Assembly (NCBI GenBank): GCA_903912525.1
Contig: CAIWHK010000007.1
Coordinates: 22,563-86,562, forward strand
Reading direction: 5' to 3'
Source of the DNA: an uncultured bacterium
GTDB lineage: Bacteria > Krumholzibacteriota > Krumholzibacteriia > LZORAL124-64-63
Length of the DNA stretch: 64,000 nucleotides
Below, piece by piece: positions 24,114-48,545 of this stretch (the stretch's first letter is position 1; every line of letters starts with the position of its first letter). The position numbers were made by a program, and so were the translations under genes. Under the pieces are notes generated by a model, which was not told where the DNA came from, made no database searches, and was given only the letters and a program-made list of their open reading frames with translations.

Positions 24114-24257
24114 GGGTTCCCCCCCAATTGGGTAAAAAGGCACATCACGTTCTTCCCTGACCGATCGAGTCCGGCTGCGTCCATGCATGCCGGATCGCCG
24201 GCCAGGCGCCTGGGGGGTGAGTCCCGGGGCGCCCGACCGGCGCCGTGATCATCCGAA

Positions 24258-27176
24258 CTACTTCATCAACGTCATCTTCATGACCTGGCTGTACGGTCCC
24301 GCGTCGAGGCGGTACATGTACGAGCCCGATGCCACCGGCTGGCCGGCATCGTCGAGGCCCATCCAGGTCACTTCATGCGTGCCGGCGCTGCGGGGTTCGT
24401 CCAGCAGCGTCGCCACCTTGCGGCCGTCCAGGCTGAAGACCGCCAGCTTGACCTGCTGGTTGGCAGGCAGGCTGAAGCTGATCGTGGTCTTCGGGTTGAA
24501 CGGGTTGGGGTAATTGTTGTGCAGGCTGTAGACGCCCGGGATCTGCTCGCCGCCGGCGCGGTTCAGGCTGACCTCGAGGCGGCTGTTGTCGGTGCCGCGG
24601 GCGTCGATGACCACGCGGGTCGTCGACAGGTCGGCAGCGGAGGACACGATCAGCAGCGAGCCGGTGCCCGTGAACGAGCGGCCCGAGCCCAGCAGGGCCA
24701 GGTTCGCGTCGAGGCGGGTGCCGGGGTTGACCAGGAAGGCCTGGTTCTCGCCGGCGAGCAGGTCGCCCAACATGACGCCGCCGACCGCGAGGTCAGCCGA
24801 CACATGCAGGCCCTGCAGGCCGCTGCCGCCGGTCAGGTCGAGGGACCAGTTGCCGTCGCCCAGGTTGCGCCAGGCCAGGTAAACCGGGCCCGCCGCGCTG
24901 GACGTACTCTTCGCAGGAGAAACCTGGCCGAAGTTCAGCGCGAAGATCATGAGGTCTTCGAAGTCGATCACGCTGTCGGTGGTCGGGATGCCGAAGCCGC
25001 TCCAGTCGTCGGTCGGGCCCACGTCGACGACGTTGTCGTACGCCGGCATGCTCTCGTTGCGGCCGAAGGCGGCGCCCAGGCGGTTGACGTCGAACGACTC
25101 GACCAGGCCGTTGGGCACCGGGTGCAGGTTGTCCTCGCCCCAGACGTCGCCCAGCCAGTAGTTGGTCGCGCGGTCGTTGGCCGACGCGCGCGGGCTGGCG
25201 TTGGCGGCCGCGTCGATCGCGAACACCTCGTAGTAGTAGATGCCACGGCCGCCCATGAACGGGCCGTCATCGACGAAGCTCGTCGTGCCGACCGTCGTGG
25301 TGCCGGCCAGTTCCCACTCGCCGATGGTCGCCGCATCGGCGCGGTCGTCAGGACGCGTCGGGATGGTGCCCGGCAGGTCGTCGTACTCGGGGTACGCCGA
25401 CAGGCCCATCGCGCCGTACCACATCAGGCCGCGGTACACCTCGTAGGTGACGGTGTCGGCGCCGTTGTGGGTCCAGCTGACGTTGACCTTGTTGTGCGCC
25501 GGCGAGGCCGTGATGCCGGTGACCGCGGCGGGCGCGGTGCAGTCGACGGTGAAGCCGGTGCCGCTCAGGCCGGCGAAGATCGGCGCATTCGCCGGGTCGC
25601 GCAGCTTGTACGACACGAGGTCGAAGGCCACCGGGCCGTTGTCGACGGTCGCCAGCGAAACGGTGAACAGGTCGGCATCGGCCAGCAGGCCGGGCGTGGC
25701 GCCGAGGATGGCGTCGTTCACGGTCCAGGTGCCGTCCAGGTTCTGGATCGGATGGAAGTAGTGCAGGCCCAGGCCGCCCAGCGAGCCGGCGTCGGCGATG
25801 TTGCCGGCGCCGAAGCTGACCGCGCTGCCGGTCACGCGGAACGTGACCTCGTAGCCGCGCAGGCCCGGCGTCGCCGCACTGCGGTCGAAGCGGACGGTGA
25901 CGACCTTCGTGTTGCCGCAGGAGACGGGGTCCGGGCCGCTGACCGTCGCGCCGATCGCCACGTAGGACGTGGTCGCGGCCGCAGCCAGGGCGTCGGCGCA
26001 CTCGGCGCCGACTTCGGTCGTGTGCGAACCGTCGCTCCACAGCCAGCCGCCGCTGGCATCCTGCCAGTAGGACAGCCAGTAGGCGCCGTTGTGCACGGCA
26101 GCCTGCGTCGTCGCGCTGGCGGGCAGGTAGCGGGCGCAGGCGGTCACGGCATAGGCCGACGCCTGGAAGTCGCGGAAGTTGTAGGCGGGGTCGTTGCCGT
26201 ACTGGTCGCTGAAGGCGCCGTCGTCGTACTGGCAGTCCAGCAGCAGCGACTGCAGCAGCGGCATGTCGCTCGCGTGCACGTCGGCGGCGTCGAAGGCCTT
26301 GATCAGGCCGCTGACGCCCAGGCTGTACCAATAGTAACTCACGGTGTTCCAGTCCGGATCGAAGCCCTTGTTCACGCCGTTGGGCTGGAAGTAGCCGGGG
26401 CTGAGCGCGAAGCTGTCCTGCCAAAGCACCTCGGCCATGTCATCGGCCGCGACGTCGTAGCCCTGGCCGGGGAACGCCGCGTCCAGGCGCGCCGCCGCCT
26501 CGACGTAGTGCGAGATGTCCCAGGGGATGATGCCGTTGTCGTAGCCCTGGCCATGGCGCGCATCACGCAGGTACCGCGCGAAACCGGCAGCCGTATGGTC
26601 GCCGTAGTTGGCCAGGCGGTAATCCCAGATGGCCTTCGCCGCGGCGGTGTAGGTCGCGGGACCCACCACGCCCGGCAGCGCCGAGAAGTTGAGCAGGAAC
26701 GTGATGTCGCCCGCGTAGCGGATCGACGTCGGCCCGACGGCGACGATGTGGTCGGCCGTGTCCTTCATCAGCGTGAACAGCGCGGGGTCGTTGTTCAGGC
26801 GGTACACCTCGTACGCGCCGAGCACCGTCACGCCGTAGCAATTGAGGGCGCTGGCAGCGGCCGAGTGCGTGAACGACGACGTCGACCAGTCCCAGCCGGC
26901 ATCCTCGGGGTCGATGTCGGGACTGCCGTTGCCGGCATTGTCCTCGGTGACGTCGGCCTGCAGGTGGCGCAGGTAGTTGCCCGCAGACGCGGCCGCGACG
27001 GCGGGATCGAGCGGATCGCCCCACGCCTTGTCCAGCGACTTGATCGCGGAACCAGGCGCAGCTTCGCGCACGGTAGGCGCGACGCCTTCAGGGGACATGG
27101 CGGGGCCGGCAGCGTGTGCCGCGGCCGCGCATACGAGAAGCGAACAGAGCAGGAAGAATCTCATGCGAGAATTCAT
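24258..27176 (-). CDS. Secreted protein with T9SS C-terminal domain; C-terminal half is paralogous to the 19737-24113 protein
   Basis: Signal peptide MNSRMRFFLLCSLLVCAAAAHA; shares the CTAPAAVTGITA...YEVYRGL...YPEYDD and ATNYWLGDV segments with the neighbouring protein; C-terminus HNNYPNPFNPKTTISFSLP. Confidence 0.75.
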   Translation of the reverse strand: MNSRMRFFLLCSLLVCAAAAHAAGPAMSPEGVAPTVREAAPGSAIKSLDKAWGDPLDPAVAAASAGNYLRHLQADVTEDNAGNGSPDIDPEDAGWDWSTSSFTHSAAASALNCYGVTVLGAYEVYRLNNDPALFTLMKDTADHIVAVGPTSIRYAGDITFLLNFSALPGVVGPATYTAAAKAIWDYRLANYGDHTAAGFARYLRDARHGQGYDNGIIPWDISHYVEAAARLDAAFPGQGYDVAADDMAEVLWQDSFALSPGYFQPNGVNKGFDPDWNTVSYYWYSLGVSGLIKAFDAADVHASDMPLLQSLLLDCQYDDGAFSDQYGNDPAYNFRDFQASAYAVTACARYLPASATTQAAVHNGAYWLSYWQDASGGWLWSDGSHTTEVGAECADALAAAATTSYVAIGATVSGPDPVSCGNTKVVTVRFDRSAATPGLRGYEVTFRVTGSAVSFGAGNIADAGSLGGLGLHYFHPIQNLDGTWTVNDAILGATPGLLADADLFTVSLATVDNGPVAFDLVSYKLRDPANAPIFAGLSGTGFTVDCTAPAAVTGITASPAHNKVNVSWTHNGADTVTYEVYRGLMWYGAMGLSAYPEYDDLPGTIPTRPDDRADAATIGEWELAGTTTVGTTSFVDDGPFMGGRGIYYYEVFAIDAAANASPRASANDRATNYWLGDVWGEDNLHPVPNGLVESFDVNRLGAAFGRNESMPAYDNVVDVGPTDDWSGFGIPTTDSVIDFEDLMIFALNFGQVSPAKSTSSAAGPVYLAWRNLGDGNWSLDLTGGSGLQGLHVSADLAVGGVMLGDLLAGENQAFLVNPGTRLDANLALLGSGRSFTGTGSLLIVSSAADLSTTRVVIDARGTDNSRLEVSLNRAGGEQIPGVYSLHNNYPNPFNPKTTISFSLPANQQVKLAVFSLDGRKVATLLDEPRSAGTHEVTWMGLDDAGQPVASGSYMYRLDAGPYSQVMKMTLMK

Positions 27177-29377: not shown

Positions 29378-30204
29378 TGAAGTCGGGCATCGGACGAATA
29401 GAAGCCCTATTGCTGGCCTACCTGCAGTTGCGGGGCATGAGGCTCGTCGAAGCCGGCGAGCTCGGGGAGCCCTTGCAACTGACGGCCGCCCAGGAGTGCG
29501 ACGCCCTGCGCCGGTTGGCGCGCGGCGGGCTGATCGCACGGGTGCGCCCTGGGCTGTACCTCGTTCCTGACCGGTTGCCGCTCGGCGGGGCCTGGACCCC
29601 GGACGAGGCGCTGGCGATCTCCTCGCTCATGGCCGATTGCGGCGGCACCTACCAGGTATGCGGCCCGAACGCCTTCCGTCGCCATGGCTTTTCTGACCAG
29701 GTGCCGATGCGGGTCTATGCCTACAACGACCGCATCTCCGGCGAGCGGACAATCGGCGCCGTCGCCTTGACGCTGATCAAGGTCAACGCGAAGCGTCTCG
29801 GCGATGTCGAAACGTTGCGCGGCGTTGACGGCGGCGAAATGGTCTATGCGTCGCGCGCGCGGACATTGGTCGACGCCGTATACGACTGGTCCCGCTTCAA
29901 CAGCCTGCCCCGCGCCTATGCGTGGATCCTCGACGATCTCGATGCCGGCCGCGTCGATCCGGCACGGCTGGTGCGTACAGCCCTCCGATTCGGGGACCTC
30001 GGCACACGCCGCCGCCTGGGCGTGCTGCTCGAGAGGGCCGGCGCACCGGAGAGCACGCTGGCGCGGCTCGAACGATCGCTGACGCCCTCATCGAGCCTGA
30101 TTCCGTGGATTCCCAGCCGCCCCAAGCGGGGCACAGTCAGCCGGCGCTGGGGGGTCCTGGTCAATGGACAGGTTGGCGAGTGGGGCGATACGGATCCTGG
30201 ATGA
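29378..30204 (+). CDS. AbiEi-family antitoxin / COG5340 transcriptional regulator (type IV TA)
   Basis: Probable TTG start after AAGGAG. N-terminal winged-helix-like region and C-terminal GAVALTLIKVNAKRLGDVETLRGVDGGEMVYASRARTLVDAVYDW typical of AbiEi. Its 3' end overlaps the AbiEii gene by 41 nt. Confidence 0.6.
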
Positions 30205-31081
30205 CCCGGCCCATTTCCGGAGCGCCGTTAACTATACGGCGGCAGTCACGGCGTTCCCTGTGGCACCCATCGAGAAGGACTTCTTCTGCACCCTTCTTCT
30301 GGAGCACCTGGCACGCAACGAACCTGACCTCGTCTTCAAGGGCGGAACCGCCCTGGCGAAAGTCCACGCTGGATTCTACCGATTGAGCGAGGACCTGGAC
30401 TTCACCCTTCCGATGCCGCTTGATTCCCCACGCTCGGCCCGCAGGCGGCGCATGGCCGGCATCCGTCGCGCGCTGGAAGGCATCGGCCGCGAATTGGCCG
30501 TCTTCCATTTGGCTGAGCCCCTGCGTGGCGCCAACAACTCGTCCCAATACTCGGCCACGGTCCGGTACCAGTCGCCATGCCTCGGATCGAGCGAAGACAT
30601 CAGACTCGACATATCCCTGAGGGAGCCACTGCTGACTCCCATCTATGCCGGGGCTGCGCAGACCATACTCCGCAACCCTGTCAATGGCAGCCGCATCATT
30701 CGCGATGTGCGCATCCCGTGCCTGTCGTGGCAGGAGTCGTGGGCCGAAAAGTTCCGCGCAGCGCTTTCGCGCCGGGATGTGGCCATTCGCGATTTCTACG
30801 ACATCGATGTTGCCGTCAGGCGGTGGAACCTGGACTCAGGCGCCGACGGGTTCGTCGCACTCGTACACCGGAAGCTATCGACTCCCGGATTCGAAAGACT
30901 GGAGCTTTCGTCGACGCGCCTGCGGTGCCTGAGAGCCCAGATCGACACGGAACTGCGACCCGTGCTCAGGCCCGTTGACTTCGAACCCTTCGACATGGAC
31001 AGGGCCGTCGACATCGTTGACGAGATGGCGAGGCGGATCCGCAAGATCGGACGCCAACGCCCAACCACCGGCACGGGATGA
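30164..31081 (+). CDS. AbiEii-family nucleotidyltransferase toxin (DUF1814), type IV TA
   Basis: EKDFFCTLLLEHLA...LVFKGGTALAKV...RLSEDLDF, the hallmark of AbiEii/DUF1814. The stop codon lies inside the REP copy at 31080-31099. Confidence 0.75.
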   Translation: MDRLASGAIRILDDPAHFRSAVNYTAAVTAFPVAPIEKDFFCTLLLEHLARNEPDLVFKGGTALAKVHAGFYRLSEDLDFTLPMPLDSPRSARRRRMAGIRRALEGIGRELAVFHLAEPLRGANNSSQYSATVRYQSPCLGSSEDIRLDISLREPLLTPIYAGAAQTILRNPVNGSRIIRDVRIPCLSWQESWAEKFRAALSRRDVAIRDFYDIDVAVRRWNLDSGADGFVALVHRKLSTPGFERLELSSTRLRCLRAQIDTELRPVLRPVDFEPFDMDRAVDIVDEMARRIRKIGRQRPTTGTG

Positions 31082-31099
31082 GTTGCGCCGGCGCAAGTC
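31080..31099. repeat. REP-like palindrome GAGTTGCGCCGGCGCAAGTC
   Basis: Overlaps the AbiEii stop codon; sits between convergent genes. Confidence 0.8.
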
Positions 31100-31113: not shown

Positions 31114-31983
31114 CTACCCCACCGCCACCCCATACAGGCGCATCACCTCGTCAAAATCCGCCATCGACTTCGCCACATCCTCGAAGTCATCGACCATCCC
31201 CCAGTAGCAGGCGATCGACCCGCGGTCCTCGATCGCGATGCCGCCGTGGGCACGGATGTCGGCCAGGAGTTCGTCGCGCCCCTTGGCGAGGTAGCCGACG
31301 AGTTCCGAGTGGTCCAGCGCGGCCTCCTCCCTGACGAACCAGGCATCAACCGAGGATGGCGACAGAAGGTGGTTGATCCCGCCGGTGGCGTCGGGGCGCC
31401 TGAGGATCTCGTCCCCGATCAACTCTTCGAGGTCACCCTCGTCGATCGTGTCGTCGTCCTCGATCGGGCGATCGCCACGCCACGAGAGGCCGGCCCAGGC
31501 GGCGTCGAGGGCGGCGAGGAACTCGGGGTCCTCGCTGCGATCGTATTCCTCATCGGGATCCGGCTTGCCGGCCTGGCGGCGGTCGTACAGGTAGTCGTCC
31601 CAGAACGGTTCCTCGTACTCGTCCTTGTCCCTGTACTCGGCCCGGTCGTCCATGGCATCCGCCAGGCTGGCGGCGACGCCCGGCGCGATGGCGCGATATT
31701 CGGCGAGCGTGCCCGTGAAGCCGAACGAGGCCGCTTCCGCGGCGGTCTCGATGACATCGCCCAGCGTCGCGAACGCCAACCGGCCGGGGTTGCACGGATC
31801 GACGCTCCACAGCACGACGCTGCTGTCCTTCTCGACAGGGCCGGTCAGGCACTCCTGCTGCGCCTGGAGGTGCTCGAGCAGGGCGGCGGCCAGGTGCTTC
31901 ACCGGTTCGTGGATTTCGGTCCGGGTAGCGAAATCGGCGAGCGTCTGCCGGGCGGCGGCGCGGGACTCATCTCTTGACGGCAT
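31114..31983 (-). CDS. Acidic hypothetical protein, paralog 1 of a three-member family (DPCNxG N-motif, G-x-IxD...WG...EDV C-motif)
   Basis: GAGGAGG RBS; pI clearly acidic; motifs LWSVDPCNPGRLAFATLGD and GGIAIEDRGSIACYWGMVDDFEDV shared with 32026-32802 and 33625-34719. Confidence 0.5.
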   Translation of the reverse strand: MPSRDESRAAARQTLADFATRTEIHEPVKHLAAALLEHLQAQQECLTGPVEKDSSVVLWSVDPCNPGRLAFATLGDVIETAAEAASFGFTGTLAEYRAIAPGVAASLADAMDDRAEYRDKDEYEEPFWDDYLYDRRQAGKPDPDEEYDRSEDPEFLAALDAAWAGLSWRGDRPIEDDDTIDEGDLEELIGDEILRRPDATGGINHLLSPSSVDAWFVREEAALDHSELVGYLAKGRDELLADIRAHGGIAIEDRGSIACYWGMVDDFEDVAKSMADFDEVMRLYGVAVG

Positions 31984-32025
31984 CACGGCCTCCTCATGCG
32001 AGTGATCCGCGCGTGCGCGGCGAAC

Positions 32026-32802
32026 CTAGTCATCTTCTTCATCGCCGATCGAGGCCATGGCGGCTTCCTGCAGGGCGCGCTCGGCGTCCTCGTGCGCGGC
32101 CAGGCGCCGATGGACTTCATTCACGTCCACCGTGAACCCCCAGAAGCACTCGAGCAGGACATCGTCGCGGATCATGGTGCAGCCGAACCGCGTGAAGCAT
32201 GCAACGATGGCGTCGTGGTCCTTGGACCTGAATGCGAGATTAGGCTCCATGTCGCAAGAGGTGTCCTGCCATTCGCCATAGGCGTTGGCGACGATGGGCG
32301 GGACGCCCTCCTCCATCGCCCTCATGGGGCAGTAGAGGTGGAGGTATCCCTCTTCTTCGTATTCGTATAGGTCTCCCAGGCAGATCTCGTCCTCGTCCAG
32401 CGGGCCGCGGCCGAGCGGAAACGGGATATCGGCGTACTCGGCGCGCAACTCGGCCTCGGTCAGCGTCGCGCGCAGTTCGTCGACGTCGAGGTCGTCACAG
32501 TAGGCGGCATCGTGCGCAGCATCGTTCAGTTCGCCATTTGCGAACGCATCGAAATCCGGGTAGCACGCTATGAAGGACAGTTCCTCGCGCAGGTCGTCGG
32601 CCTCGCACCCGCCCAGTTCGGTGAAACGCCCCCAGGTCCCTGCGGATTCGGCCGCGGCGAAGAAAGGGGCCCACAACGACATCTCGTCGAACGGGACGAA
32701 CACCAGGCCGCCATTGCACGGGTCCGCGCCGTAGATGAAGACCTCGGCCATGGGATCCGGACGACGGGCGGGGCCGTTGCCCGAAAAGTGGCGCACGCTC
32801 AT
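32026..32802 (-). CDS. Acidic hypothetical protein, paralog 2
   Basis: Start MSVRHF overlaps the stop of the upstream gene (ATGA). IYGADPCNGGLVFVPFDE and GCTMIRDDVLLECFWGFTVDVNEV motifs. Confidence 0.5.
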   Translation of the reverse strand: MSVRHFSGNGPARRPDPMAEVFIYGADPCNGGLVFVPFDEMSLWAPFFAAAESAGTWGRFTELGGCEADDLREELSFIACYPDFDAFANGELNDAAHDAAYCDDLDVDELRATLTEAELRAEYADIPFPLGRGPLDEDEICLGDLYEYEEEGYLHLYCPMRAMEEGVPPIVANAYGEWQDTSCDMEPNLAFRSKDHDAIVACFTRFGCTMIRDDVLLECFWGFTVDVNEVHRRLAAHEDAERALQEAAMASIGDEEDD

Positions 32803-33623
32803 CGGCGACTCCCCTCGACAACGGCAGTCCGCACATCCTCGCACGCGAACCGCAGGAAGTCGTGCACATGGGCCAGCAGCGGATGATCCGGACCGCCCAC
32901 CGGCACCAGCGTCCGGTTGACCTCGACCATCAGCGAGCGCGTGTCGTTGACGTGCGGCGGCAGGTCGCCGGGCACGAAGGAACCCGCGAACGGCCGGTTG
33001 TGGTCGATGAGGCCCGGCGCGCCCGCGGCGCGACCCGTCCACCACGCCAGCCAGTTGCGCGGCGCGTGGACCTCGTCGTAGCCGAGGCAATACCATGGCC
33101 GCGAGCCGCCGTCCGTCTCGTAGGGCAGCGGCGCCTGGGGAAACGAGTGCAGGTCGATGATGTGGACCGGCGCGTCGAAGCGCTCGCGCAGTTCGACGAC
33201 CAGGTCGCGCATGGCGCGGTGGTACGGGTGGTAGAACTCGTCCATGCGCTCGGCGCGGTCGTCGGCGTCCCAGTTGCGCCGGCGCAAGCGGCGGCCGTCG
33301 TGCGCGTGCACATAGATGGCGCCCATGCCCCAGACGGCGGCGATCTCGTCGGCGTCGGCGGCGTATCGCTCGGGGTCCATCACGACACGGCAGACGTTGT
33401 TGACCACGACGTGGGCGCCGAGCGCCACCAGGGGCAGCGCCAGGCGGTCGGTGTCGTGGTCGACGAGGGCCTCGATCACTTCGCGGAGCTCTGCGTCGGT
33501 CAGCACGAAGTCGCCACGGCAGTGCAGGGGCACGAAGCGCGAGGCGTGGGGCACGTGGATGATGATCGGCAGCGCCACTGCCGGGTCGGGACGATGGATG
33601 GTAAGCCAGGCGTTGTCGCCCAT
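32799..33623 (-). CDS. N-formylglutamate amidohydrolase (FGase, PF05013-like) fold protein with in-frame REP-derived insertion
   Basis: IIIHVPHAS motif typical of the FGase family. A REP copy at 33271-33290 encodes the RRLRRRNW insert. Confidence 0.6.
   Translation of the reverse strand: MGDNAWLTIHRPDPAVALPIIIHVPHASRFVPLHCRGDFVLTDAELREVIEALVDHDTDRLALPLVALGAHVVVNNVCRVVMDPERYAADADEIAAVWGMGAIYVHAHDGRRLRRRNWDADDRAERMDEFYHPYHRAMRDLVVELRERFDAPVHIIDLHSFPQAPLPYETDGGSRPWYCLGYDEVHAPRNWLAWWTGRAAGAPGLIDHNRPFAGSFVPGDLPPHVNDTRSLMVEVNRTLVPVGGPDHPLLAHVHDFLRFACEDVRTAVVEGSRR
33271..33290. repeat. REP-like palindrome variant CAGTTGCGCCGGCGCAAGCG, in-frame inside the FGase-fold gene
   Basis: Encodes RRLRRRNW on the minus strand. 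Confidence 0.65.
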
Positions 33624-33624
33624 C

Positions 33625-34719
33625 TCAGAATCCCCCTTCGTCGTCATCGTCCTCTTCCTCTTCCCACTCCTCGTCTTCCTCGAGGTCAGGGTCCTTCAAG
33701 TCGTCGAGCACGCTGGCGCAGCCCGGTGACGGGTCGGCCGGGGTGATCAGTTCCAGCTCGGCCCTGAACTCGGCCTCGCGCGCCCGGTATGCCTTGCACT
33801 TGGCGATCACGTCCTCGTAGCTCTTGAAGGTGCCGAAGAACGCGCGGATCGCGTCGTCGTCACGGATGGTCAGGTAGCCCAGGCGACGGAACGCCGCCTG
33901 GAGCAGCGAGCTGCTGACTTCGTCGTACGAGGCGAACGGGCCGTTGCAGCTCATGTCATAGAACGAACCGGCGTACTTGTCCTCGATGAGCGAGGGCATC
34001 GACGAACTCATGGCCGTCTCGGGGCGGTACAGCCAAATCTTCCCGTCCCAGATGGCCTGCGACATGTCCAGCTCGTTGATCTCGTCGGTCGGCTGCGGCG
34101 GGCGGTCGCCGAAGCAGCTGAGCGCCTCCCACCGCGCGCGCAGGACCTCTTCCGTGGGCCGGACGGCCGGCGGCGTCCACTCGCACTTGTCATCGTCGTC
34201 CCACTCGTCATCGCACGGGCGCTCGGCCGGATCGCCCTTCTTCAGGAACTCGCTGCGGAACGAGCGAAAGGTCTTCCACCGCGCCGCCTCGCGAAGCGTG
34301 GCCTTGAGCGCCACCGCCCGCTTGCGGTCCAGCTTGGCGTAGCCCGCCCACGTCTTGCCCGCGGCGATGGCGGCCCACGCCGGCAGGTAGGCCAGCAGGT
34401 CGTCCAACGGGACGTAGAGCTGGGAGTCGCCGTGGTCGTAGCCCCAGACGTAGACCATCTCGAGCGGACTGACGACCGTCGGCACACCGCGCAGCGGCTG
34501 CTCCTGTCCGCTGGCCTTCTCGACGAGCTGCCGTACTTCGCGCCAGGGCTTGCAGCCGAGGTTCCCGAAGTAGGCGGCGCGCGCGTGGGCACGGCGTTCC
34601 TCGGGCGTGAGCTGCTCGAAATCGATTTCGGGCGCTACTGCCTTCTTGGCCGACGGGGTCGTCTTGCCAGTGGTCGTCTTGCCAGTGGCCTTCTTGCGAG
34701 CGGTCGTCTTGGTAGCCAT
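33625..34719 (-). CDS. Hypothetical protein with Lys/Thr/Ala-rich basic N-terminal tail and acidic C-terminus; paralog 3 of the acidic family
   Basis: AAGGGAGA RBS; N-terminus MATKTTARKKATGKTTTGKTT; C-terminus SCNGPFASYDE...GYLTIRDDDAIRAFFGTFKSYEDV...EEDEEWEEEEDDDDEGGF. Confidence 0.5.
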   Translation of the reverse strand: MATKTTARKKATGKTTTGKTTPSAKKAVAPEIDFEQLTPEERRAHARAAYFGNLGCKPWREVRQLVEKASGQEQPLRGVPTVVSPLEMVYVWGYDHGDSQLYVPLDDLLAYLPAWAAIAAGKTWAGYAKLDRKRAVALKATLREAARWKTFRSFRSEFLKKGDPAERPCDDEWDDDDKCEWTPPAVRPTEEVLRARWEALSCFGDRPPQPTDEINELDMSQAIWDGKIWLYRPETAMSSSMPSLIEDKYAGSFYDMSCNGPFASYDEVSSSLLQAAFRRLGYLTIRDDDAIRAFFGTFKSYEDVIAKCKAYRAREAEFRAELELITPADPSPGCASVLDDLKDPDLEEDEEWEEEEDDDDEGGF

Positions 34720-34834: not shown

Positions 34835-36271
34835 CTACCCTCCCTCAGCGAGCCGCGGCAGCGGCACGACCTCCTTCCCGAGGACGCCGGCCAGGTCGCG
34901 GTCGTAGCTCCCCGCCAGCAGCACCACGCATTGCAGGCGCCGTTCGCGCAGTTCGCGCCGATGCTCTTCCGGCACGCTCCCGACGTACCCGTCGGTGATG
35001 ACCACGGCGCGCCGGACACCCTCGGCCAACATGTGCGCCGAGACGCAACGGATGTCCGTGCCCCCGTCGCCGACGACCTTGCGGGCGACCAGCTCGGCGG
35101 GTGAGATGTCGTGCAGCGTGGTGCTGAACAGGTGGATGCGCGGGTAAAGCAACGCGCGCAGCGGCGCCAGGGCGCCGTAGAGCAGGGCAATGACGCCCGC
35201 CATGCTGCCGCTGACGTCCAGGTACACGTGCACGAGGCTGCCGGGGTCGGGCTCGCGTTCGCGCCGCACGGCGCGGAACACGATCGGCGCCGCGCCGAAG
35301 GCCTCGCGCACGCCGGCGCGGCGGTCGGCCACGGTGCGGAACGGCAGCGCGGACTCGACGTCCACGTCACGCGCGCCCCGAGACGGCGCAGAACCCGGCT
35401 GGTCGCCCGCAACCCGCAGCAGTGCCCCGCGGATCACGCGGACGACGTCGCGCCGCGCCTCGCGCGCCTCGACGAACGCCGCGCCGGGATCACCGCCCTG
35501 GCCCCGGTCGACGCCGACGCCGCGCGCGGCCAACGTGACCTCGGCCGGCCAGTGGGCGACGACGCGGCGCAGGGTTTCGAGCAGGGCGGGATCGACCCCG
35601 CCGCCCTCATCGTCGCCCGGCGGACCGACGTCGTGGCTGCCCAGCAGCGGCGGCAATTCAAGCGACGCCTTCGCGCGACCCCGACGGCGGCGGCACCCGA
35701 GCGACTCCTCGAGCACCTCGACGAGGTCCGCATGCGTGACGGTGTCGCCCGCATACAGCGCGCGATGGGCGACGAGCGCCTTGCCCGTCATCCGCCACGA
35801 CTCGTTCGCGGTGCGCCAGCCGACGGGCGGGCGCAGCAGCGCCTCGGGGAAGCGGGCGTCCGCGTACAGTTCGCGAAACAGCGCCGTGTACGCCGGTCGG
35901 GGTAATGCGCGGCACAGCTGGGCGTTGACCAGGGCGTCGAAGATGAAGTTCCGCGCCGGCGTCGTGCGCGGGTACAGGCGCGTGTGGCCGAGCACGATGT
36001 GGTTGAGCTCGTGCAGCACGAGCATCACCAGGGCCGCGTCGGTGCGGCAATGCCGCGCCACGAAGTCCGGATTCAACAACAGGCGTGAGCGGGCGCCCGA
36101 GGTCACGGCCGCCGTCGCCACGTCGCGGTTGACCTCCACGTCCAGCAGGCCCAGCAGCTTCGCAAACTCGAGGTGCGAGGCAGGGACCGTTTCGGCGATG
36201 CGCTCGGCAAGGGTGGCCGAGAGGGCGCGATCGACGGCACGGTCGGCAGCATGGTCAATGGCGGTCGTCAT
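34835..36271 (-). CDS. Putative HExxH metallopeptidase plus vWA-like domain protein (DUF2201-type MoxR partner)
   Basis: Start MTTAIDHA overlaps the upstream stop (ATGA). LVLHELNHIVLGH zinc-peptidase motif; VHVYLDVSGSMAG vWA-like MIDAS. Confidence 0.6.
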   Translation of the reverse strand: MTTAIDHAADRAVDRALSATLAERIAETVPASHLEFAKLLGLLDVEVNRDVATAAVTSGARSRLLLNPDFVARHCRTDAALVMLVLHELNHIVLGHTRLYPRTTPARNFIFDALVNAQLCRALPRPAYTALFRELYADARFPEALLRPPVGWRTANESWRMTGKALVAHRALYAGDTVTHADLVEVLEESLGCRRRRGRAKASLELPPLLGSHDVGPPGDDEGGGVDPALLETLRRVVAHWPAEVTLAARGVGVDRGQGGDPGAAFVEAREARRDVVRVIRGALLRVAGDQPGSAPSRGARDVDVESALPFRTVADRRAGVREAFGAAPIVFRAVRREREPDPGSLVHVYLDVSGSMAGVIALLYGALAPLRALLYPRIHLFSTTLHDISPAELVARKVVGDGGTDIRCVSAHMLAEGVRRAVVITDGYVGSVPEEHRRELRERRLQCVVLLAGSYDRDLAGVLGKEVVPLPRLAEGG

Positions 36272-36813
36272 GCCGGCACCTCCCCCGCGCCGGGCGCCGC
36301 GTAGAACGCGAAGGCCATCCGGGGAGTCCGCATCACGGCCGTGCCCGGCGCGCGCCGCCGGATGAACACGGAGCCGGACACGCGCGACAGCAGGGCCAGC
36401 GCACGCGCCGGGTCCGCCTCGAAGCCCTGTTCGTGGACGCCGTCCACCGGGATGCGGCGCACGATGGCGAATGGCGGCAATCCCAGCGCCACGGGATCCA
36501 GGCGCCCGAGCATTTCCTCCAGCCGGTCGGACAACTCGTCGTCGGGGCACGGGTACAGCTCGATGTCGGCATCACGACGGCCGAGCACCGCGTCCTGGGC
36601 CAGCGCCACCAGCCGCACCAGGCGCAGGTGCGCATCGCGCTCCCACTCGCGTTCGAACGGGCGCCCGAGCAGGAGCGGGTACGGGTCGACAAACGAGAAC
36701 AGCCGCAGCGACGGAACGGGCGCCGCCACACCGCTCCGCAGCGCCACAGCGCCGACAGTGCGCGCCGGGTCGAACGGGCGGCACCTGACCTTGATGGAGC
36801 GCGAGGTGCTCAT
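36268..36813 (-). CDS. Hypothetical protein (181 aa) between the MoxR ATPase and the metallopeptidase-vWA gene
   Basis: ATGA overlaps on both sides indicate translational coupling; no recognisable domain. Confidence 0.45.
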   Translation of the reverse strand: MSTSRSIKVRCRPFDPARTVGAVALRSGVAAPVPSLRLFSFVDPYPLLLGRPFEREWERDAHLRLVRLVALAQDAVLGRRDADIELYPCPDDELSDRLEEMLGRLDPVALGLPPFAIVRRIPVDGVHEQGFEADPARALALLSRVSGSVFIRRRAPGTAVMRTPRMAFAFYAAPGAGEVPA

Positions 36814-38276
36814 GCCGCCTCCCCGTCCGCTGCCGGATGCAGCAACTCGTGCCACTCGCGGTAGCAGGCGACCACCCGTGCCGCGTCCAGGCCCGTCGCA
36901 TCGTCCAGGAACGCCGCGTAGAGCAGGTTGCCGATCTCGCCGAGTTGCGGCTCGCCCTCCTTCGACAGGCGGTCGATGGTGGCGCACACGTTATCCCATG
37001 CATTGGCGTGCGCGCGCGGCACTGTGCGGGTGACCTTGCCACCGCCCGCAAATGCGAGCACCGGCTCGACCAGCACCGCCAATTGCTCGCAGGCCTCGGC
37101 GGTCAGCAGATCCTCGCGCGTGAACCGCGAGGCCAGCACCAGCGCCAGCACACGGCGTCCGTTCGGCGTCTGCGAGGCCAGGGCATCGAGCACGAGCTGG
37201 CTGACCTGCGTGCGCGTCGACTCGCCGGGCTCCGCGCGCAACGCGATGGCGACGCGGCGCACCGGGTCGGCCTCGCCGCGGATGTCGCGCCAGGTGGCGC
37301 CGTCGATTGCGCGCGCCGCGTGGTCGGCCAGGCGGTGGGCCGCCTTCAACGCGGCGTCATCGATCACGCGGCCGAGCGCGCGCTGAGGCAGACCCCAGCG
37401 CAGCGCGGTGTACGCCGACTGCGGCAGCGAACTGCGCACCCCGAGCGCCAGGTGGGCCGCGTGCACGGCCAGCGCCGACGAGGCCAGCGCGACCGCGCGG
37501 CGCCCGCTGATGTCGAGCCCCATCTGGTGCAGCGGCACGATGAGCCCCTGCACCCAGGCCGCGGCCCAGGCGCGCTGGCCCTCGGTCAGCTCCGCCAGGC
37601 GCGCGCGGGCTGTGGCGACCAGCGCGGGCAGGCCGGCATCGCCGTCAGGCGCGGTGCCGCCCTGCGCGATGATCGCCGTGCGATCGGCCACCGACAGGTC
37701 CAGCAGGCGCGGGACGGTCACCACGTACGGGAACCGATCGGCGAGCGCCGGGTCGAGCGGCACCGAGCCGGAATAGGCATCGCCCTCGACCGTGCCGTCG
37801 TCGAGCGCCGGCGGGTTCATCGCGGCCCACCGATACCTCAGGTTTACCAGCGGCAACCCCTGCACGCGCCGCTCGTGAATCACCGCGAACAGCTTGTTCT
37901 GCGTCTCGGGGCGGCAGCGCGAGATCTCGTCGAGGAACACCGACTCGGCGCCCCACAGGTCGCCCGGCGTGCGCAGCCACGAGAGAGCGTCGCGCGCCTC
38001 ATTGGGCACGGGGTAGCCGAGCAGGTCGTCAAAGCTGATGAGGCTGGCGTTGAAGTGGCGGTGCTCGAGGCGCAGCGCCGCGGCAAGCCGGTTGAGCAGC
38101 TCGCTCTTGGCGGTGCCGTGCGCGCCGATCAGGAGCAGCGGGCGCTCGTCGGTGAGCGCCGCCAGGATGACGGCATCGAGGTGGTCGAGTCCGAAGATGT
38201 TCAGGCGTCGCAGCAGGTGGTTGTTGCCGGACGTATCGGATGGGGCTGCAATATCGGCGTGGCTTGCGTTGGGCAT
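36810..38276 (-). CDS. MoxR-like AAA+ ATPase
   Basis: Walker A LLLIGAHGTAKSEL; Walker B VFLDEISRC; sensor/arginine-finger region typical of the MoxR/RavA family; GGGAGGTG RBS. Confidence 0.7.
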   Translation of the reverse strand: MPNASHADIAAPSDTSGNNHLLRRLNIFGLDHLDAVILAALTDERPLLLIGAHGTAKSELLNRLAAALRLEHRHFNASLISFDDLLGYPVPNEARDALSWLRTPGDLWGAESVFLDEISRCRPETQNKLFAVIHERRVQGLPLVNLRYRWAAMNPPALDDGTVEGDAYSGSVPLDPALADRFPYVVTVPRLLDLSVADRTAIIAQGGTAPDGDAGLPALVATARARLAELTEGQRAWAAAWVQGLIVPLHQMGLDISGRRAVALASSALAVHAAHLALGVRSSLPQSAYTALRWGLPQRALGRVIDDAALKAAHRLADHAARAIDGATWRDIRGEADPVRRVAIALRAEPGESTRTQVSQLVLDALASQTPNGRRVLALVLASRFTREDLLTAEACEQLAVLVEPVLAFAGGGKVTRTVPRAHANAWDNVCATIDRLSKEGEPQLGEIGNLLYAAFLDDATGLDAARVVACYREWHELLHPAADGEAA

Positions 38277-38437
38277 GCCGCACCTCCCGTTTCCCCCAAT
38301 GGCCGCCCGTGCGGCCAGGCTCCGGGGGCAGGGAGCGCGGCCGACGCTTTAGCAGCATTTGTTTAGGCCGCCCTGCAAGCTGTCAGGGTCAAATCGGCGG
38401 CCCCCGGCAAATGCCGGGAAGAGAAAAGTGCCGGGCA

Positions 38438-38472
38438 AAGAAAAAGCCTGCTTCCAATGGCTGAAGCAGGCA
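38438..38472 (-). terminator. Rho-independent terminator (minus strand) upstream of the MoxR operon
   Basis: Perfect 9-bp stem GCCTGCTTC-N9-GAAGCAGGC followed on the minus strand by TTTTTCTT. Confidence 0.45.
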
Positions 38473-38614
38473 GCGCGCGATCATGTCGCGTTCGGCCTCG
38501 CTTTAGCCTGATTTGTATCGCGCCGGCAAGCTGAGGTCAAAGAGGCGCGTTTGAATATTATCGGCGCGATGGGGTGTTTGGTCAAGAGGTATTTCGCAAG
38601 TTTGTTGCGTGGGT

Positions 38615-38645: not shown

Positions 38646-39017
38646 TCACGCGTTCATTCCTCGCCAAGGCCTGCCCGGCAATTTCGTCGCGATGCGTTGA
38701 TGTACTTCTCGCCAGGCGGCATTCCCGTCGTACGCGAGCCCGGGCCGCAGCAGCAGTTTCACGTCACCGACGAAAGCCGCGTCCCTCATCTTTGCGGCCA
38801 GGTTCGCCTCCATGCGGGCGCGGGTCACGGGCACGCCGAGCCAGGGCGCGAGATATCCCCAGGTCCTGTTCGACCAGCGCCGACTCGGGCCAGGGCGTAG
38901 CGGCACGATGGTGGTGCGGCGGGCGACCAGCCACGCGGCCAGCGAACCTGCCAGACGTTCCTCGCCCAGCTGTTCGAGCACGTAGCCGAGACGCTGGGCA
39001 TCGGGCCGGCGCACCAT
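38646..39017 (-). pseudogene. Probable remnant or short ORF of unknown function (C-terminal about 120 aa of a larger protein)
   Basis: Protein-like codon usage only in the segment 38646-39017; the long ORF in the track runs through REP 39303-39322 and an AT-rich intergenic stretch, so the 5' part is not credible. Confidence 0.3.
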
Positions 39018-39302
39018 TGGTTGCTGGTGGCCGGCGCCATGGAGCGCGGCGGCCGACACCAGGCGCCCCTTCTGCTTCTGGCGGCGCAATGCCGATTGCG
39101 TTGCGACGAACGACGACCGGAGGGCAGCCTCGGCCTCTTGGCGCCTACAACATGTAGCGGCCCTTGGCGGGAAGGGATTCGATCCAGTCTTCGAGGTGGT
39201 GAAGGGCGTCCATGTTCGGCAAGCCTCAGCATGTAAGTCAGCATCAAATGCTAATATATTGTCGTATATTTGATCGATTCTTGGGATTGGGGGTGTCGCG
39301 CG

Positions 39303-39322: not shown

Positions 39323-39462
39323 GCAGCCGATCCGGCCGGACCCGCAACGGCATTTGCGCCCGCCCCCGCAAGGGTATAGGCTTTGCTGCCGACCTGCCCA
39401 TGGCAGAGCCTCCCGGCTGCACCCATCGACCGCTGGCCCAGGACTCCGGAAAAGAGCCGCAG

Positions 39463-42400
39463 ATGACCGTGTTTTCGCTCCGCCATTTCGACGAGGACAC
39501 CGTCTTCGAGCGGGCCGCGCTCGAAACTGTCAGGCGCGGTCACACCTACCACAGAGCCGGACGGGTCGTTAATGTCTCCGTCAAACGGGACGACCTTGCG
39601 GTGCTCGGGGTGGACGGCAAGACCGGCCACTACGTGGTGACCATCTCCGTAAACCAGTCGACCGACACGCTCGACCACACCTGCACATGCCCGCACGCGG
39701 GCGGCGGCGCGTTCTGCAAGCACATGGTGGCCGCCACGCTCGAACTCGAGGAATACGTCCAGGCGATGGCCGATGAATTCGGCGAGGACGATTTGGATGA
39801 TGATGACGACGTCATTGCATTCAACGTCGAGACGTTCGATTCCGGCCGACCTGTCACTGGTACTCCGCCCCGAAAGGACGCCCGCCTGAAGCTGATCGAC
39901 GGCTCCGCGCGCACCGACCAACCGGCCCGCACCGCCCCGGACTGGCGGCAGAAACTGACCAGCGCCCTGACCGACATGTCGCACCTGGTGCCCGGCGCGA
40001 AACCGCGCCCCTACGTCGCCGCCATCGTCCTGGATCGTGGGCGTACCGACATCCACAGGTACGGCAGCTGGAACTACGGCTCCGAACCGTACGCGCTGGT
40101 GCCGTACGTCATCAGCGCCACCTCGTGGAAGCGAATCCCGGGCGACAAGCCGACTTCCCCCCGAGACATCAATGCGTATCTGGAAACCGAGCCGGGGTGG
40201 CTCCAATTCGCCGACCGCATGTACCAGCAAGGCAACCCGGCGGGATGCCTCAACCTTGACCCCCATACGGCCGGCGTCCTGAACCTGATCGTGAGTGCGT
40301 TGCCGTTGTATGTCAGCCGCACGGCCAATCTTTCCAGCCTACTGTCGCTGCTGGCGCGTTCGGACATTCCCGTGTTCCTGGGCGACATCCGTTCGCATCA
40401 GGTCGCGTGCCGCCTCCGGATCGAGAGCGATCCCGTGGTGTTGGCCGCCGACGTGCGAACCGCGGAGAGCGCGTTCACAGTACACCTGGGCACTACGCGG
40501 GATGGTGTCTTTCGCGAGCTTCCCGCGGCGATCGAGACGATCGCGGAAAATCCGACGTGGATCCTGGACGGCAAGGACATCCTGAGGGTCGAAAACGAGC
40601 GGGCCTTGTCGATCGCCCGCGCGTTTCCGCTCACCGTTCCGGCGGCGGAGATCGACGAGTTCCGCGGGAACCACTTTGGGGCCATCGCCCAGATGGTGCC
40701 GATCCACGGCGATGTCGTCCACTGGCGGGACTTGCAGGTGGCGCCGGTGCCGCGGCTGTATCTGCAGGACGACGGAGCCCGCTCGCTGCGCGCCGAGCTG
40801 CGCTTCGCCTATGGCGAGTTTTCGACGGCGGACATCAAGGCCACCTTCACCGTCGGCATTGCGAACATGCCCGACTCGTGGGACCTGGTGCGCGTCCACC
40901 GGCAGCCCGAATCCGAAGAGCGGATCCTGAAGCTGCTGGCCGAGCCCGCCCACGGCCTCAAGCGCGTGGACGCCGCCGCGCGGCCGGGCACGTACCAGCT
41001 GCGGGCCCGCACGCATCCGCTGGATTTCCTCCTGAACGCCGTGCCCCGGCTTGCGCAGGCCGGATTCGAGATCTACGGCGCCGAGGACCTGAAGGTCGGC
41101 CGCGTCAACCGCGCGACGGCGAACGTGCGCGTGAGCATCACCTCGGGCCTCGACTGGTTCGACCTCGAGACCGTCGTCGAGTTCGGCGACCAGCAGGTCT
41201 CGCTGCAGGACGTGCGCAAGGCCCTCAAGCGGGGCGAGCACTACGTGAAGCTGGCCGACGGCTCGGTAGGCCGGATCCCCGAGGAATGGCTGGCGAAATA
41301 CAGGCACCTGCTCGACCTGGCCGAGGAGTCCGGACCAGGTCTGCGGTTGCGCGACTTCCACCTGCCCCTGCTCGACCAGCTGCTGCAGGAGGACGCCGCG
41401 CTTCGCTTGCCTGCCGACCTGACCCGTCGGCGCGAACGGCTGCGCGATTTCGAGGGGATCAGGCCGCAGCCGCTGTCGGCCGCGTTCACCGGCGAGCTGC
41501 GCCCGTACCAGAAGCACGGCTACGACTGGCTGCATTTCCTGGGCGAGTGCGGCTTCGGCGGCATCCTGGCCGACGACATGGGCCTGGGCAAGACCGTCCA
41601 GGTCCTGGCCTACCTCCAGGCGCGCCACGAACAGCCCGTGGTCACGGCCGCGACGCTGCTGGTCGTCCCCCGCAGCCTGATCACGAACTGGCAGCTCGAA
41701 TCGCGGAAGTTCACGCCCGGCCTGCGCTTCCTGGACCATACCGGAAGCGCGCGCGCGAAGGATGTCGCCGCCTTCGACGGCTGCGACATCGTGCTGACGA
41801 CCTACGGCACGATGCTGCGCGACATCGAGGTGCTGCGCGGGTACACGTTCAGCCACATCGTGCTGGACGAATCGCAGGCCATCAAGAATCCCCTGGCCAA
41901 GGGCGCCAAGGCCACGCGGCTGCTTCACGGCGACCAGCGCCTGGTGATGACGGGCACGCCGGTCGAGAACAGCACGTTCGAACTGTGGTCCCAGTTCGCG
42001 TTCCTGAACCCCGGGATGCTCGGCGGCATGGAGTACTTCCGGCGCGAGTTCGCCAACCCCATCGAGGCCAACCGCGACGAGCAGGCTGCCGCCACGTTGC
42101 GCCGGCTGGTGCGCCCCTTCATCATGCGCCGCACCAAGGAACAGGTCGCGCCCGAATTGCCCCCGCGCACCGAGCGCATCGTCTATACGGAGATGGGTAC
42201 CGCGCAGAAGAAGCTCTACGCGCTGACGCGTGAACGCTACCGCGCCGAACTGATGGGATTGATCGACGGCGGCGCCATGAACGATGCCCGGTTCCGGATC
42301 CTCGAGGGCCTGCTGCGCCTGCGGCAGATCGCGATCCACCCGGCGCTGATGGACCGCACATACAAGGGCGAAGCGCCCAAGTTCGAAGCGCTGCTGGAGA

Positions 42401-48429: not shown

Positions 48430-48545
48430 GGGTACGTCCCGTGGTCGATGGTGGCGGTGCCGGGTGTGTGAGGGCCGGTGGGGATGACAATAGTGCATTA
48501 TAACGCGTTTGGGGGTGATGGATCTACAGAAATGAGGGGGTGCGC

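Follow-up and report, generated by a model that had tools for sequence, protein, structure and literature searches.

The locus and its genes

The window, the whole 64,000-nucleotide stretch of DNA from an uncultured bacterium analysed here, carries on its minus strand seven genes that form a single compact operon in which stops and starts overlap. The promoter-proximal three encode a MoxR-class AAA+ ATPase of 488 aa (36810..38276; AAA_5 40.1 bits against a cut-off of 22, bpMoxR 29.9 bits against 27), a basic protein of 181 aa and pI 9.28 (36268..36813) whose start overlaps the MoxR stop, and a zincin-like metallopeptidase fused to a VWA domain (34835..36271; VWA_CoxE 27.3 bits, cut-off 26.4). 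As read from its translation, the fusion protein contains HELNH and a complete MIDAS motif, DVSGS...T...D; its score for DUF2201_N (20.1 bits) falls under the cut-off of 23.2. The 181-aa protein has no family match in Pfam, NCBIfam, PADLOC or PHROGs, and was rejected as a further relative of the acidic proteins described below (hhalign against the family profile, E=0.42).

The remaining genes encode three acidic proteins, A3, A2 and A1 in order of transcription, and an FGase-family (PF05013) zinc amidohydrolase of 282 aa (32799..33647; 129.7 bits, cut-off 28.9). The acidic genes had been described in the first-pass annotation as a tandem triplication; they are indeed clustered, but A3 and A2 are separated by the FGase gene, which shares 23 nt with the end of A3 and 4 nt with the beginning of A2. 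A3 (33625..34719; 364 aa, pI 4.73) is a long-form member with an acidic C-terminal tail ending EGGF and the Lys/Thr-rich basic N-terminal tail that had been noted previously, in which the repeat TGKTT occurs twice in the window and four times in the orthologue from locus L004. A2 (32026..32802; 258 aa, pI 4.06), also a long form, ends in a C-terminal DEEDD tail. A1 (31114..31986; 290 aa, pI 4.22), which may start at either GTG 31986 or ATG 31983, has no acidic tail and is the most diverged and fastest-evolving of the three. All three genes have a GGAG-type ribosome-binding site; A1 and A3 show GC3 values of 0.87-0.89, A2 having been excluded by the filter of that scan. Asp and Glu make up 19-22% of the three proteins, with net charges of -39 (A1), -41 (A2) and -20 (A3). 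Two earlier generalizations apply to A1 and A2 and not to A3: a pI below 4.5, which A3 exceeds because of its basic tail, and an N-terminal PCN(G/P)G motif, seen as DPCNPG in A1 and DPCNGG in A2, where A3 has DHGDSQ.

A REP-like palindrome, (G/C)TTGCGCCGGCGCAAG (31082..31097), lies between the convergent A1 and AbiEii genes and likely marks the end of the operon; 21 copies at no more than one mismatch are present in the window, against 0 expected. The window as a whole is island-like, carrying AbiEi/AbiEii, SWIM-SNF2, two YhcG nucleases and HTH-M78.

A rare family of acidic proteins

Composition-adjusted BLASTP related A2 to A3 with E=8e-17 across 234 aa, A1 to A2 with E=1e-9 across 229 aa and A1 to A3 with E=7e-7, bearing out the proposed paralogy. 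When the proteins were aligned by hhalign to a profile of shorter relatives (short forms), A2 matched end to end (E=9e-12) and A3 over the full domain (E=4.6e-11); the match of A1 was weak (E=0.084). Orthologues of A1 are just 76-79% identical, as against 89-98% for flanking genes, and those of A3 are 89-92% identical. No family in Pfam-A 2025, NCBIfam 20.0, PADLOC 2.0 or PHROGs 4 was matched at threshold by any of the three, the best sub-threshold noise being WH2 at 14.2 bits against a cut-off of 23.1, and no sequence match was found among PDB chains. The earlier description of an unrecognised family thus stands, with no clear assignment to a known domain family. Judged by these sequence comparisons, A1-A3 are true paralogues belonging to a rare and undescribed family of acidic proteins.

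Members are extremely scarce. Among 1.84 billion proteins, a profile search of the kind suggested for defining the family and its context recovered only 126 cluster representatives, 36 of them at E<=1e-10. Members have a median pI of 4.49, with 79% of them below 5. No domain family was common to the 121 members scanned; individual members are fused to HEAT, YbjN/TY-Chap3 or DUF3293 domains, and paralogue arrays occur in the window, L001 and L005.

Members share conserved N- and C-terminal blocks flanking a variable helical insert that contributes about half of the negative charge. The N-terminal block comprises a beta-hairpin, a helix and a TWG motif; the C-terminal block consists of P..I..FG followed by a beta-alpha-beta unit ending G..(I/V)RDD, and the two probably pack into one core. 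The suggested structure prediction gave a confident AlphaFold model of A2 (pLDDT 90.6, up from 69.7 before 93 family sequences were added), and Foldseek searches of PDB and BFVD with this model were without a match. Most positions shared by 60% or more of the members are Gly, Pro, Trp or hydrophobic, the polar exceptions being T56, R132, D213 and an Asp replaced by E151 in A2. This pattern lacks conserved catalytic residues and suggests that the family is likely non-catalytic.

Conserved neighbours and a tandem SAM-II-like leader

An FGase gene lies immediately upstream of a long-form gene in six of seven distinct long-form loci (the window clade, L005, L006, L059, L009-11 and L058), often with overlapping stop and start, and the adjacency persists down to 36% identity between the FGase proteins and 21% between the family members. 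L001 has two long-form genes and no FGase gene on its 13.9-kb contig. The window enzyme clearly matches at family level the N-formylglutamate amidohydrolase HutG (PF05013) and its structure (PDB 2q7s, E=2e-4), with the HxPH, DPER and LHS motifs preserved. In contrast to HutG, it scores only 37.2 bits against the equivalog cut-off of 278.75 (TIGR02017), an assignment that was rejected, and no hut genes lie nearby; its substrate therefore probably differs.

The position of the acidic genes in an ATPase-peptidase operon had been called unusual; the implied view of this operon as their meaningful context is not upheld by the wider comparison. As in the MoxR AAA+/VWA chaperones RavA-ViaA, NorQ-NorD and CbbQ-CbbO, an AAA_5 ATPase gene is followed in one operon by that of a MIDAS-bearing VWA protein; unlike them, the window operon joins the VWA domain to a zincin-like peptidase domain in one protein, and the pair is a clade-only addition. 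The VWA MIDAS site of such pairs is of a type that binds carboxylate ligands. A1-A3 could thus be imagined as pro-proteins that would be caught by their acidic tails at this site and processed by the zincin domain, as the tight seven-gene operon, the intact MIDAS and HELNH motifs and the acidic tails of A2 and A3 might suggest. This is very unlikely in our estimation: A1 has no acidic tail, and the MoxR, 181-aa and zincin-VWA genes precede acidic genes only in the window's clade (L004, L012), being missing from the cassettes of L005, L059, L001 and L058, and a client role is therefore not the general function of the family. From gene order and aptamer models, the constant companions of the long forms appear instead to be the zinc amidohydrolase gene and a double SAM-II-like leader.

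In the window this leader occupies 38329-38585 on the minus strand. It begins with the sigma-70-type promoter of the operon, TTGACC-17 nt-GATAAT (38557..38585; 10/12 matches), the sole promoter-like match between 38200 and 38700 (0.2 expected); L005, L001 and L059 have identical hexamers and spacing upstream of their leaders. Aptamer 1 (38480..38558; RF00521 SAM_alpha, 26.4 bits, E=6e-4) starts approximately at the predicted transcription start and contains the boxes UUUGAC, GCUUGC, ACAAA and GCUAAAG, with orthologous copies in the same three loci. Between it and aptamer 2 (38329..38410; 26.9 bits, E=4.5e-4), whose core hardly differs in L005, L001 and L059, is an intrinsic terminator hairpin, GCCUGCUUC..GAAGCAGGC, followed by a U run (38437..38471). 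Read from the sequences, a U-A pair of the terminator stem in the window is C-G in L001 and L059, a compensatory change. The 5' half of the stem, GCUUCAGC, is complementary at 7/8 positions to the aptamer-1 tail, GCUAAAGC, a pairing that could act as an anti-terminator. In the expression platform (38277..38340), an anti-SD sequence, GCGCUCCC..GCCCCC, pairs with GGGGG..GGGAGG, which includes the SD, immediately ahead of the ATG at 38276. In the minimum-free-energy fold the ribosome-binding site is occluded, and aptamer 2 would govern its release.

The cassette lies behind a SAM-II-like aptamer in five loci, one of them a distant lineage, and four, including the window, have the full order of promoter, aptamer 1, terminator, aptamer 2 and occluded ribosome-binding site. 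The REP element recurs in four of the five loci that have the leader, and these four therefore represent one taxon. Only in the window's genome is MoxR the first gene after the leader; in L005, L059 and L001 it is missing from this position and the leader runs straight into the cassette genes. The RF00521 scores of 26.9 and 26.4 bits (window), 27.5 and 24.3 (L005), 22.1 (L001) and 23.2 and 22.8 (L059) all fall short of the Rfam gathering score of 36 bits, and the L058 copy was undetected by this model. The aptamer boxes nevertheless align to the model consensus, and the pattern TTTGN{6,11}TTGCN{14,24}GCTAA matches only aptamers 1 and 2 in the 64 kb (0.00 expected). Three aptamer types have fully complementary P1 strands (CGCGCC/GGCGCG, GGCCGCC/GGCGGCC and GACGCGG/CCGCGUC), a compensation read from individual sequences, the types being out of register in MAFFT. 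Tandem SAM-II pairs in which the first aptamer controls a terminator and the second a ribosome-binding site have been described (PMC9481103), and the window leader resembles them in this layout, in its GAUUUG, GCUUGC, AACAA and GCUAAAG boxes and in its covarying P1 stem. It differs in its sub-gathering scores and in its downstream genes: directly after the leader, none of the five loci has methionine, SAM or sulphur metabolism genes, and MoxR, FGase or acidic-family genes are found instead. S-adenosylmethionine (SAM) is the most likely ligand, a provisional assignment because every copy scores below the gathering threshold.

Known SAM-II riboswitches regulate sulphur and SAM metabolism genes (PMC9481103), and a leader of this type would make a metabolic role for the cassette the more natural one. 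The FGase-like enzyme might release or recycle a compound needed at low SAM or methionine, perhaps through deacylation of an N-acyl amino acid, with the acidic proteins as accessory subunits, scaffolds or assembly factors and MoxR/VWA as a maturation chaperone, the role for which such pairs are chiefly known. The intact active-site motifs of the FGase and the linkage of leader to cassette in five loci, distant lineage included, are consistent with this reading, to which we assign only a tentative place. All the loci lack nearby genes for methionine, SAM or one-carbon metabolism, the wider family occurs in defence and mobile islands, its extreme rarity counts against such a role, and several fast-diverging paralogues would be unusual for accessory subunits of a housekeeping enzyme.

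Possible roles of the acidic proteins

In the islands occupied by the wider family, HEPN, Hma, helicase, methylase, integrase and transposase genes adjoin. A census of neighbours across 18 short-form loci found no constant partner. A HEPN-like protein is adjacent or fused in four short-form loci. In L028 the short form directly follows the HEPN_Swt1-HmaC gene of an Hma system, and a CBS + RNxxAH (HEPN-like) protein is encoded just downstream in L019 and L036 and fused in L030, the HEPN matches outside L028 being weak (Pfam E=4e-4 and 0.03, hhalign probability 45%).

Very low pI and a location near restriction-type genes are shared with the DNA mimics Ocr and ArdA. A mobile-element anti-restriction protein of this sort was nonetheless rejected: relatives were found neither in 50,697 phage or 72,556 plasmid records (tblastn) nor in IMG/VR, and the BFVD fold search was empty, so that a phage or plasmid origin is not supported. 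Host-encoded mimics might instead fill the surfaces with which defence nucleases or helicases bind DNA or RNA, and so restrain methylation-dependent defence at times of falling SAM and under-methylated self-DNA. We judge this unlikely, given that the family is chromosomal, resembles no solved DNA mimic in sequence or fold and lacks phage, plasmid or IMG/VR relatives, and that an amidohydrolase, rather than an enzyme acting on nucleic acids, is the sole constant partner of its long forms.

The explanation that we favour, at a probability of roughly one in three, is that the family supplies a non-catalytic acidic protein that partners or neutralises the enzyme encoded next to it and is expressed at low levels of the ligand, probably SAM. 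The acidic proteins would bind the enzyme encoded beside them, an FGase-type zinc amidohydrolase for long forms and a Swt1-like HEPN RNase for short forms, either to neutralise or regulate it stoichiometrically, in the manner of antitoxins or immunity proteins, or possibly as its substrates. Transcribed behind the tandem SAM-II-like riboswitch, in which aptamer 1 with its terminator precedes aptamer 2 with its occluded ribosome-binding site, the FGase/acidic-protein cassette would be made only when ligand is scarce. The MoxR ATPase and zincin-VWA protein, inserted between leader and cassette in the window's genome, might contribute through a MIDAS site that could plausibly grip Asp/Glu-rich tails, the ATPase/peptidase then remodelling or cleaving the acidic proteins.

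This partner or neutraliser reading draws on analogy with immunity and antitoxin proteins of bacterial conflict systems, which the family resembles in being small, probably non-catalytic and encoded beside an enzyme, in its paralogue arrays, its fusions to HEAT or YbjN-type domains, the quick divergence of A1 and its island-like setting. Polyimmunity arrays are reportedly a feature of polymorphic toxin loci. The family differs from such proteins in having no homology to Imm, SUKH or antitoxin families in Pfam; to our knowledge, FGase is not among the known toxin families and riboswitch control is not typical of immunity or antitoxin systems. The SAM-type riboswitch, in suggesting metabolism, likewise counts against neutralisation.

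A more specific version, which we regard as a long shot, is a metabolite-gated conflict module in which a SAM-II-derived riboswitch would silence an FGase-type effector and its acidic neutralisers until the ligand, SAM or a relative, collapses, as might happen during expression of a phage SAM lyase or a failure of self-DNA methylation; an abortive response or restraint of methylation-dependent defence would then follow. If true, it would be the first immune or anti-autoimmune module under riboswitch control, and the acidic proteins would constitute a new fold family neutralising both amidohydrolase and HEPN effectors.

An acidic protein family with two conserved blocks

The first-pass annotation described three paralogous, highly acidic proteins of an unrecognised family. 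They are A1 (31114-31986), A2 (32026-32802) and A3 (33625-34719), all encoded on the minus strand. Composition-adjusted BLASTP bore out the paralogy (A1-A2 E=1e-9, A1-A3 E=7e-7, A2-A3 E=8e-17), and the proteins have isoelectric points of 4.22, 4.06 and 4.73, respectively. Of the two conserved blocks proposed for them, the C-terminal one was found in all three, but the N-terminal 'PCN' block only in A1 and A2, A3 lacking it. The Lys/Thr-rich N-terminal tail of A3 was confirmed and differs in repeat number among orthologues, with two TGKTT-type repeats in the window protein (33625-34719) and four in its close orthologue at locus L004 (648-1769). The C-terminus of A3 consists of an acidic run followed by a conserved ...EGGF. 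None of the three proteins has a match in Pfam, NCBIfam, PADLOC, PHROGs or PDB sequences, and as no tested family accommodates A1-A3, the description as unrecognised holds.

An exhaustive profile search of 1.84 billion cluster representatives returned 126 proteins at E<=1e-3, 36 of them at E<=1e-10. Word-indexed searching recovered only four to eight relatives even with profiles, namely near-orthologues and a few proteins at ~40% identity, a meagre yield probably caused by acidic low-complexity words swamping the candidate list. All ten clusters looked up consist of metagenomic or metagenome-assembled genome (MAG) data, and no source gives any of these ten a name beyond 'hypothetical protein'. 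Broad family alignments contain no conserved stretch of 7-10 columns, and a close-relative alignment was used for searching genomes; among 185,579 species genomes it found only three loci, all in uncultured MAGs. Relatives of the family derive without exception from uncultured organisms. Most members are acidic proteins of 140-350 aa (median pI 4.49; 79% below 5) that share an N block, VYG..LVF(I)P...A......TWGEF, and a C block, R.P.D.D.F ... P..M..W.P..I...FG ... IVAA....GY.C.RDD.L...A.G., separated by an insert of very variable length. A1-A3 are long forms, with a long insert and an extra C-terminal helix, to which A2 and A3 add an Asp/Glu tail. Against a profile of the short forms, relatives with a shorter insert, A2 and A3 aligned end to end in hhalign (E=9e-12 and 4.6e-11, respectively); A1 is more diverged (E=0.084) and is tied to the family via A2. 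A1 is 76-79% identical to its orthologues at five loci (L002, L003, L004, L012 and L013), where A2, the intervening amidohydrolase, A3, the VWA protein and AbiEii are 89-98% identical, figures that point to accelerated divergence of A1 relative to its neighbours.

AlphaFold prediction from six sequences gave a pLDDT of 69.7, and prediction from 93 family sequences gave 90.6 with a pTM of 0.85; this rise provides independent support for homology. The order of secondary-structure elements in the model suggests that both conserved blocks form a single alpha/beta core carrying a helical insert, and no fold relative was recognised for the confident model. Where a position is conserved in 60% of members or more, it is usually occupied by Gly, Pro, Trp or a hydrophobic residue; the polar ones are T56, R132, D213 and an Asp (E151 in A2), and no catalytic-looking constellation is among them.

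Gene neighbours of the long and short forms

The acidic-protein genes belong to one operon of seven co-directional minus-strand genes, in the order MoxR-like ATPase (36810-38276), a 181-aa protein (36268-36813), a zincin-VWA protein (34835-36271), A3, a PF05013-family zinc amidohydrolase here called FGase (32799-33647), A2 and A1. GC3 is high throughout and ribosome-binding sites are of the GGAG type. Stop and start codons overlap at four junctions (MoxR/181-aa, 181-aa/VWA, A3/FGase by 23 nt and FGase/A2 by 4 nt), and A2 and A1 are separated by 39 nt. The 181-aa gene was considered as a hidden fourth paralogue of A1-A3 and rejected on profile comparison with the family. FGase is a clear PF05013 member that retains the HxPH, DPER and LHS motifs; because its score falls far under the HutG equivalog threshold, its substrate is probably other than N-formylglutamate.

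The annotation had taken an ATPase-peptidase operon as the setting of the acidic proteins. This does not extend to the family, since MoxR/VWA genes lie ahead of the acidic genes only at loci nearly identical to the window (L004 and L012, VWA 93-98% identical), and a role for the acidic proteins as dedicated clients of MoxR/VWA appears very unlikely. The gene that recurs next to the long forms is FGase, situated just upstream and in many cases overlapping them at stop and start codons. It is present throughout the window clade (L002, L003, L004, L012 and L013), at L005, L006 and L059 (63%, 55% and 63% identical to FGase of the window), at L009-11 (36%, adjoining the family member P0133) and at L058, where an FGase 36.6% identical to that of the window adjoins P0024, a family member just 21% identical to A2. 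L001, which carries two long forms, is the only locus without FGase within its contig. Nothing relevant was found in the literature on FGase with MoxR/vWA or with ATP-grasp proteins.

In a census of neighbours at 18 short-form loci, no partner was constant. Nearby genes are of a mobile-element or defence flavour and include HEPN_Swt1 proteins, integrases, ResIII and SNF2 helicases, N6 and DUF1156 methylases, and RadC. At L019 and L036, a CBS protein with an RNxxAH motif lies directly downstream of the family gene, its HEPN_Swt1 match being weak (E=4e-4; hhalign E=2e-4, probability 45%), and L030 has a fusion of such a protein with the family domain. At L023, the ORF downstream of the short form was considered as a further CBS-HEPN partner and dropped, as it is not homologous. 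At L028 (1-8438), the family gene directly follows the HmaC gene of a complete Hma-type system, HmaC having an N-terminal Swt1-like HEPN domain, and at L007 (1-10459) the short form faces a PLD-SNF2 operon encoding a 1,893-aa protein. The short forms of L028 and L007 may serve defence systems as accessory genes. That family members are host nucleic-acid mimics braking such systems is an alternative reading of these acidic proteins in a defence setting, which we regard as unlikely. Other fusions join the family domain to HEAT repeats, a YbjN/TY-Chap3 domain or DUF3293. No relatives were found in the phage collection, the plasmid collection or IMG/VR.

The window itself (66% GC) is island-like from ~29 to 56 kb, with genes at 29473-31081 (+), 39400-42879 (+), 48592-49626 (-), 50271-51434 (+), 52709-53941 (-) and 55358-56197 (-) that comprise an AbiEi/AbiEii pair, a SWIM-SNF2 helicase with strong generic DpdE/ZorD-type PADLOC matches, two YhcG/DUF1016 proteins that are PD-(D/E)xK nucleases, an HTH-Peptidase_M78 protein and a further AbiEi. 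The window contains 21 copies of a REP-like perfect palindrome, CTTGCGCCGGCGCAAG (<=1 mismatch; 0 expected), most of them at boundaries between genes (for example, at 28247, 29185, 31082, 38617, 39305, 42912, 44914, 49972, 51443, 52678, 54403, 55092 and 56297). Since the palindrome is common to L001, L002, L005, L006 and L059, these loci come from the same or a closely related taxon. Flanked by two of its copies, an ORF of ~190-280 aa (38646-39230, -) separates the operon leader from the SNF2 gene. This ORF has no Pfam match and a short ORF in another frame just upstream; it may be a decayed gene. Three very large secreted proteins (19737-24188, 24258-27176 and 45013-48585, all -) share a similar conserved C-terminal segment of ~90 residues, which in the third, a protein with FG-GAP/ASPIC repeats, matches the FlgD Ig-like domain. 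Taken with the GC content of 66% and with relatives confined to MAGs, these proteins are suggestive of an uncultured environmental lineage.

A SAM-II-like leader upstream of the cassette

A conserved non-coding leader of ~300 nt precedes the operon (38329-38585, -) and recurs before the cassette of FGase and acidic-protein genes at L005 (750-1045), L001 (9690-10000) and L059 (2400-2710). The gene that it precedes differs, being MoxR in the window, an acidic paralogue at L005, the family member P0004 at L001 and FGase at L059. On the minus strand the leader comprises, in order, a promoter at its 5' end (TTGACC-17-GATAAT), aptamer 1 (38480-38558), a terminator, aptamer 2 (38329-38410) and a predicted hairpin that occludes the ribosome-binding site. 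The terminator consists of a hairpin and U run, with a compensatory U-A to C-G change in its stem at L001 and L059. The aptamers match the Rfam SAM-II model RF00521 on the correct strand at 26.9 and 26.4 bits (E=4.5e-4 and 6e-4 in a 501-nt scan), below its gathering score of 36, and copies at the other loci score similarly; the whole window yields zero matches at Rfam gathering thresholds. The core pattern TTTG..TTGC..GCTAA occurs in the 64-kb window only in the two aptamers (0.00 expected) and among the 61 loci only at L001, L005, L059 and L058. A sub-threshold match to the Burkholderia sRNA Bp2_287 (28.9 bits against 70) at 38441-38567 (+), and at L005 755-897 (-), is antisense to aptamer 1 and the terminator and was taken for that element in reverse, not for a separate RNA; the Bp2_287 family itself may represent a SAM-II riboswitch and terminator on the wrong strand.

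One taxon accounts for four of the five loci that bear the leader. The fifth, L058, lacks the taxon-marking REP element, and the link between aptamer and cassette therefore reaches beyond one lineage. Its aptamer copy (289-352) lies ~50 nt upstream of the FGase start codon, with a P1 stem that differs yet is fully complementary (GACGCGG/CCGCGUC); the three aptamer types do not align in register in MAFFT, and the pairing was read directly from the sequences. Positions 1-400 of L058 hold two similar units in series, each with an aptamer tail (..CCGCUAA(A/G)AAGCC), a CUCC/GGAG hairpin occluding the Shine-Dalgarno sequence, and an ATG. The second ATG starts the FGase gene and the first opens an ORF of only 25 codons, possibly a leader peptide or else a remnant. 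Searched by nhmmer with the aptamer alignment, the short-form loci yielded no copies.

Tandem SAM-II pairs in which the first member acts through a terminator and the second through the ribosome-binding site have been described before sulphur and SAM metabolism genes (PMC9481103), whereas the genes downstream in the window are not obviously of either kind. As its score is below threshold and the genes behind it are unrelated to SAM metabolism, the leader could represent a variant class or a new regulon. A riboswitch in front of the cassette would suit a metabolic role, in which an amidohydrolase of SAM starvation is furnished with accessory subunits; set against the genomic surroundings, the small number of family members and the turnover of paralogues, this proposal seems somewhat doubtful.

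A proposed role for the cassette

The reading that best fits the data, to which we give a probability of roughly one in three, is that of a non-catalytic acidic protein acting by contact with an adjacent enzyme and expressed at ligand scarcity. Long forms would contact the FGase-type amidohydrolase, and some short forms an RNase of the HEPN type; the acidic protein might be the neutraliser, regulator or substrate of its enzyme. A SAM-II-type riboswitch appears to gate the cassette, whose expression, by analogy with known SAM-II switches, would come with scarcity of the ligand. Beneath the shared leader, the MoxR and zincin-VWA genes are a lineage-specific addition. Given an intact MIDAS motif in the VWA protein and the presence of Asp/Glu tails, a model in which the MIDAS engages and captures these tails is plausible.

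No counterpart of the trio of aptamer, FGase and acidic protein is described in the libraries and papers searched. The novelty lies in a family and a cassette that match no tested class, and is not claimed for mechanism. The family, defined here by its N- and C-block signature, 126 representatives and a confident model, would merit an entry of its own. A SAM-II-like tandem is unusual in front of genes without an obvious tie to sulphur or SAM metabolism; among variant riboswitch classes, such odd associations have pointed either to a change of ligand or to unrecognised biology of a known one. The conserved trio also offers a concrete handle on this amidohydrolase subfamily and its substrate. 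Should the cassette be a conflict system, it would tie small-molecule sensing by RNA to bacterial immunity, and should it be metabolic, a missing function of SAM starvation would have been identified.
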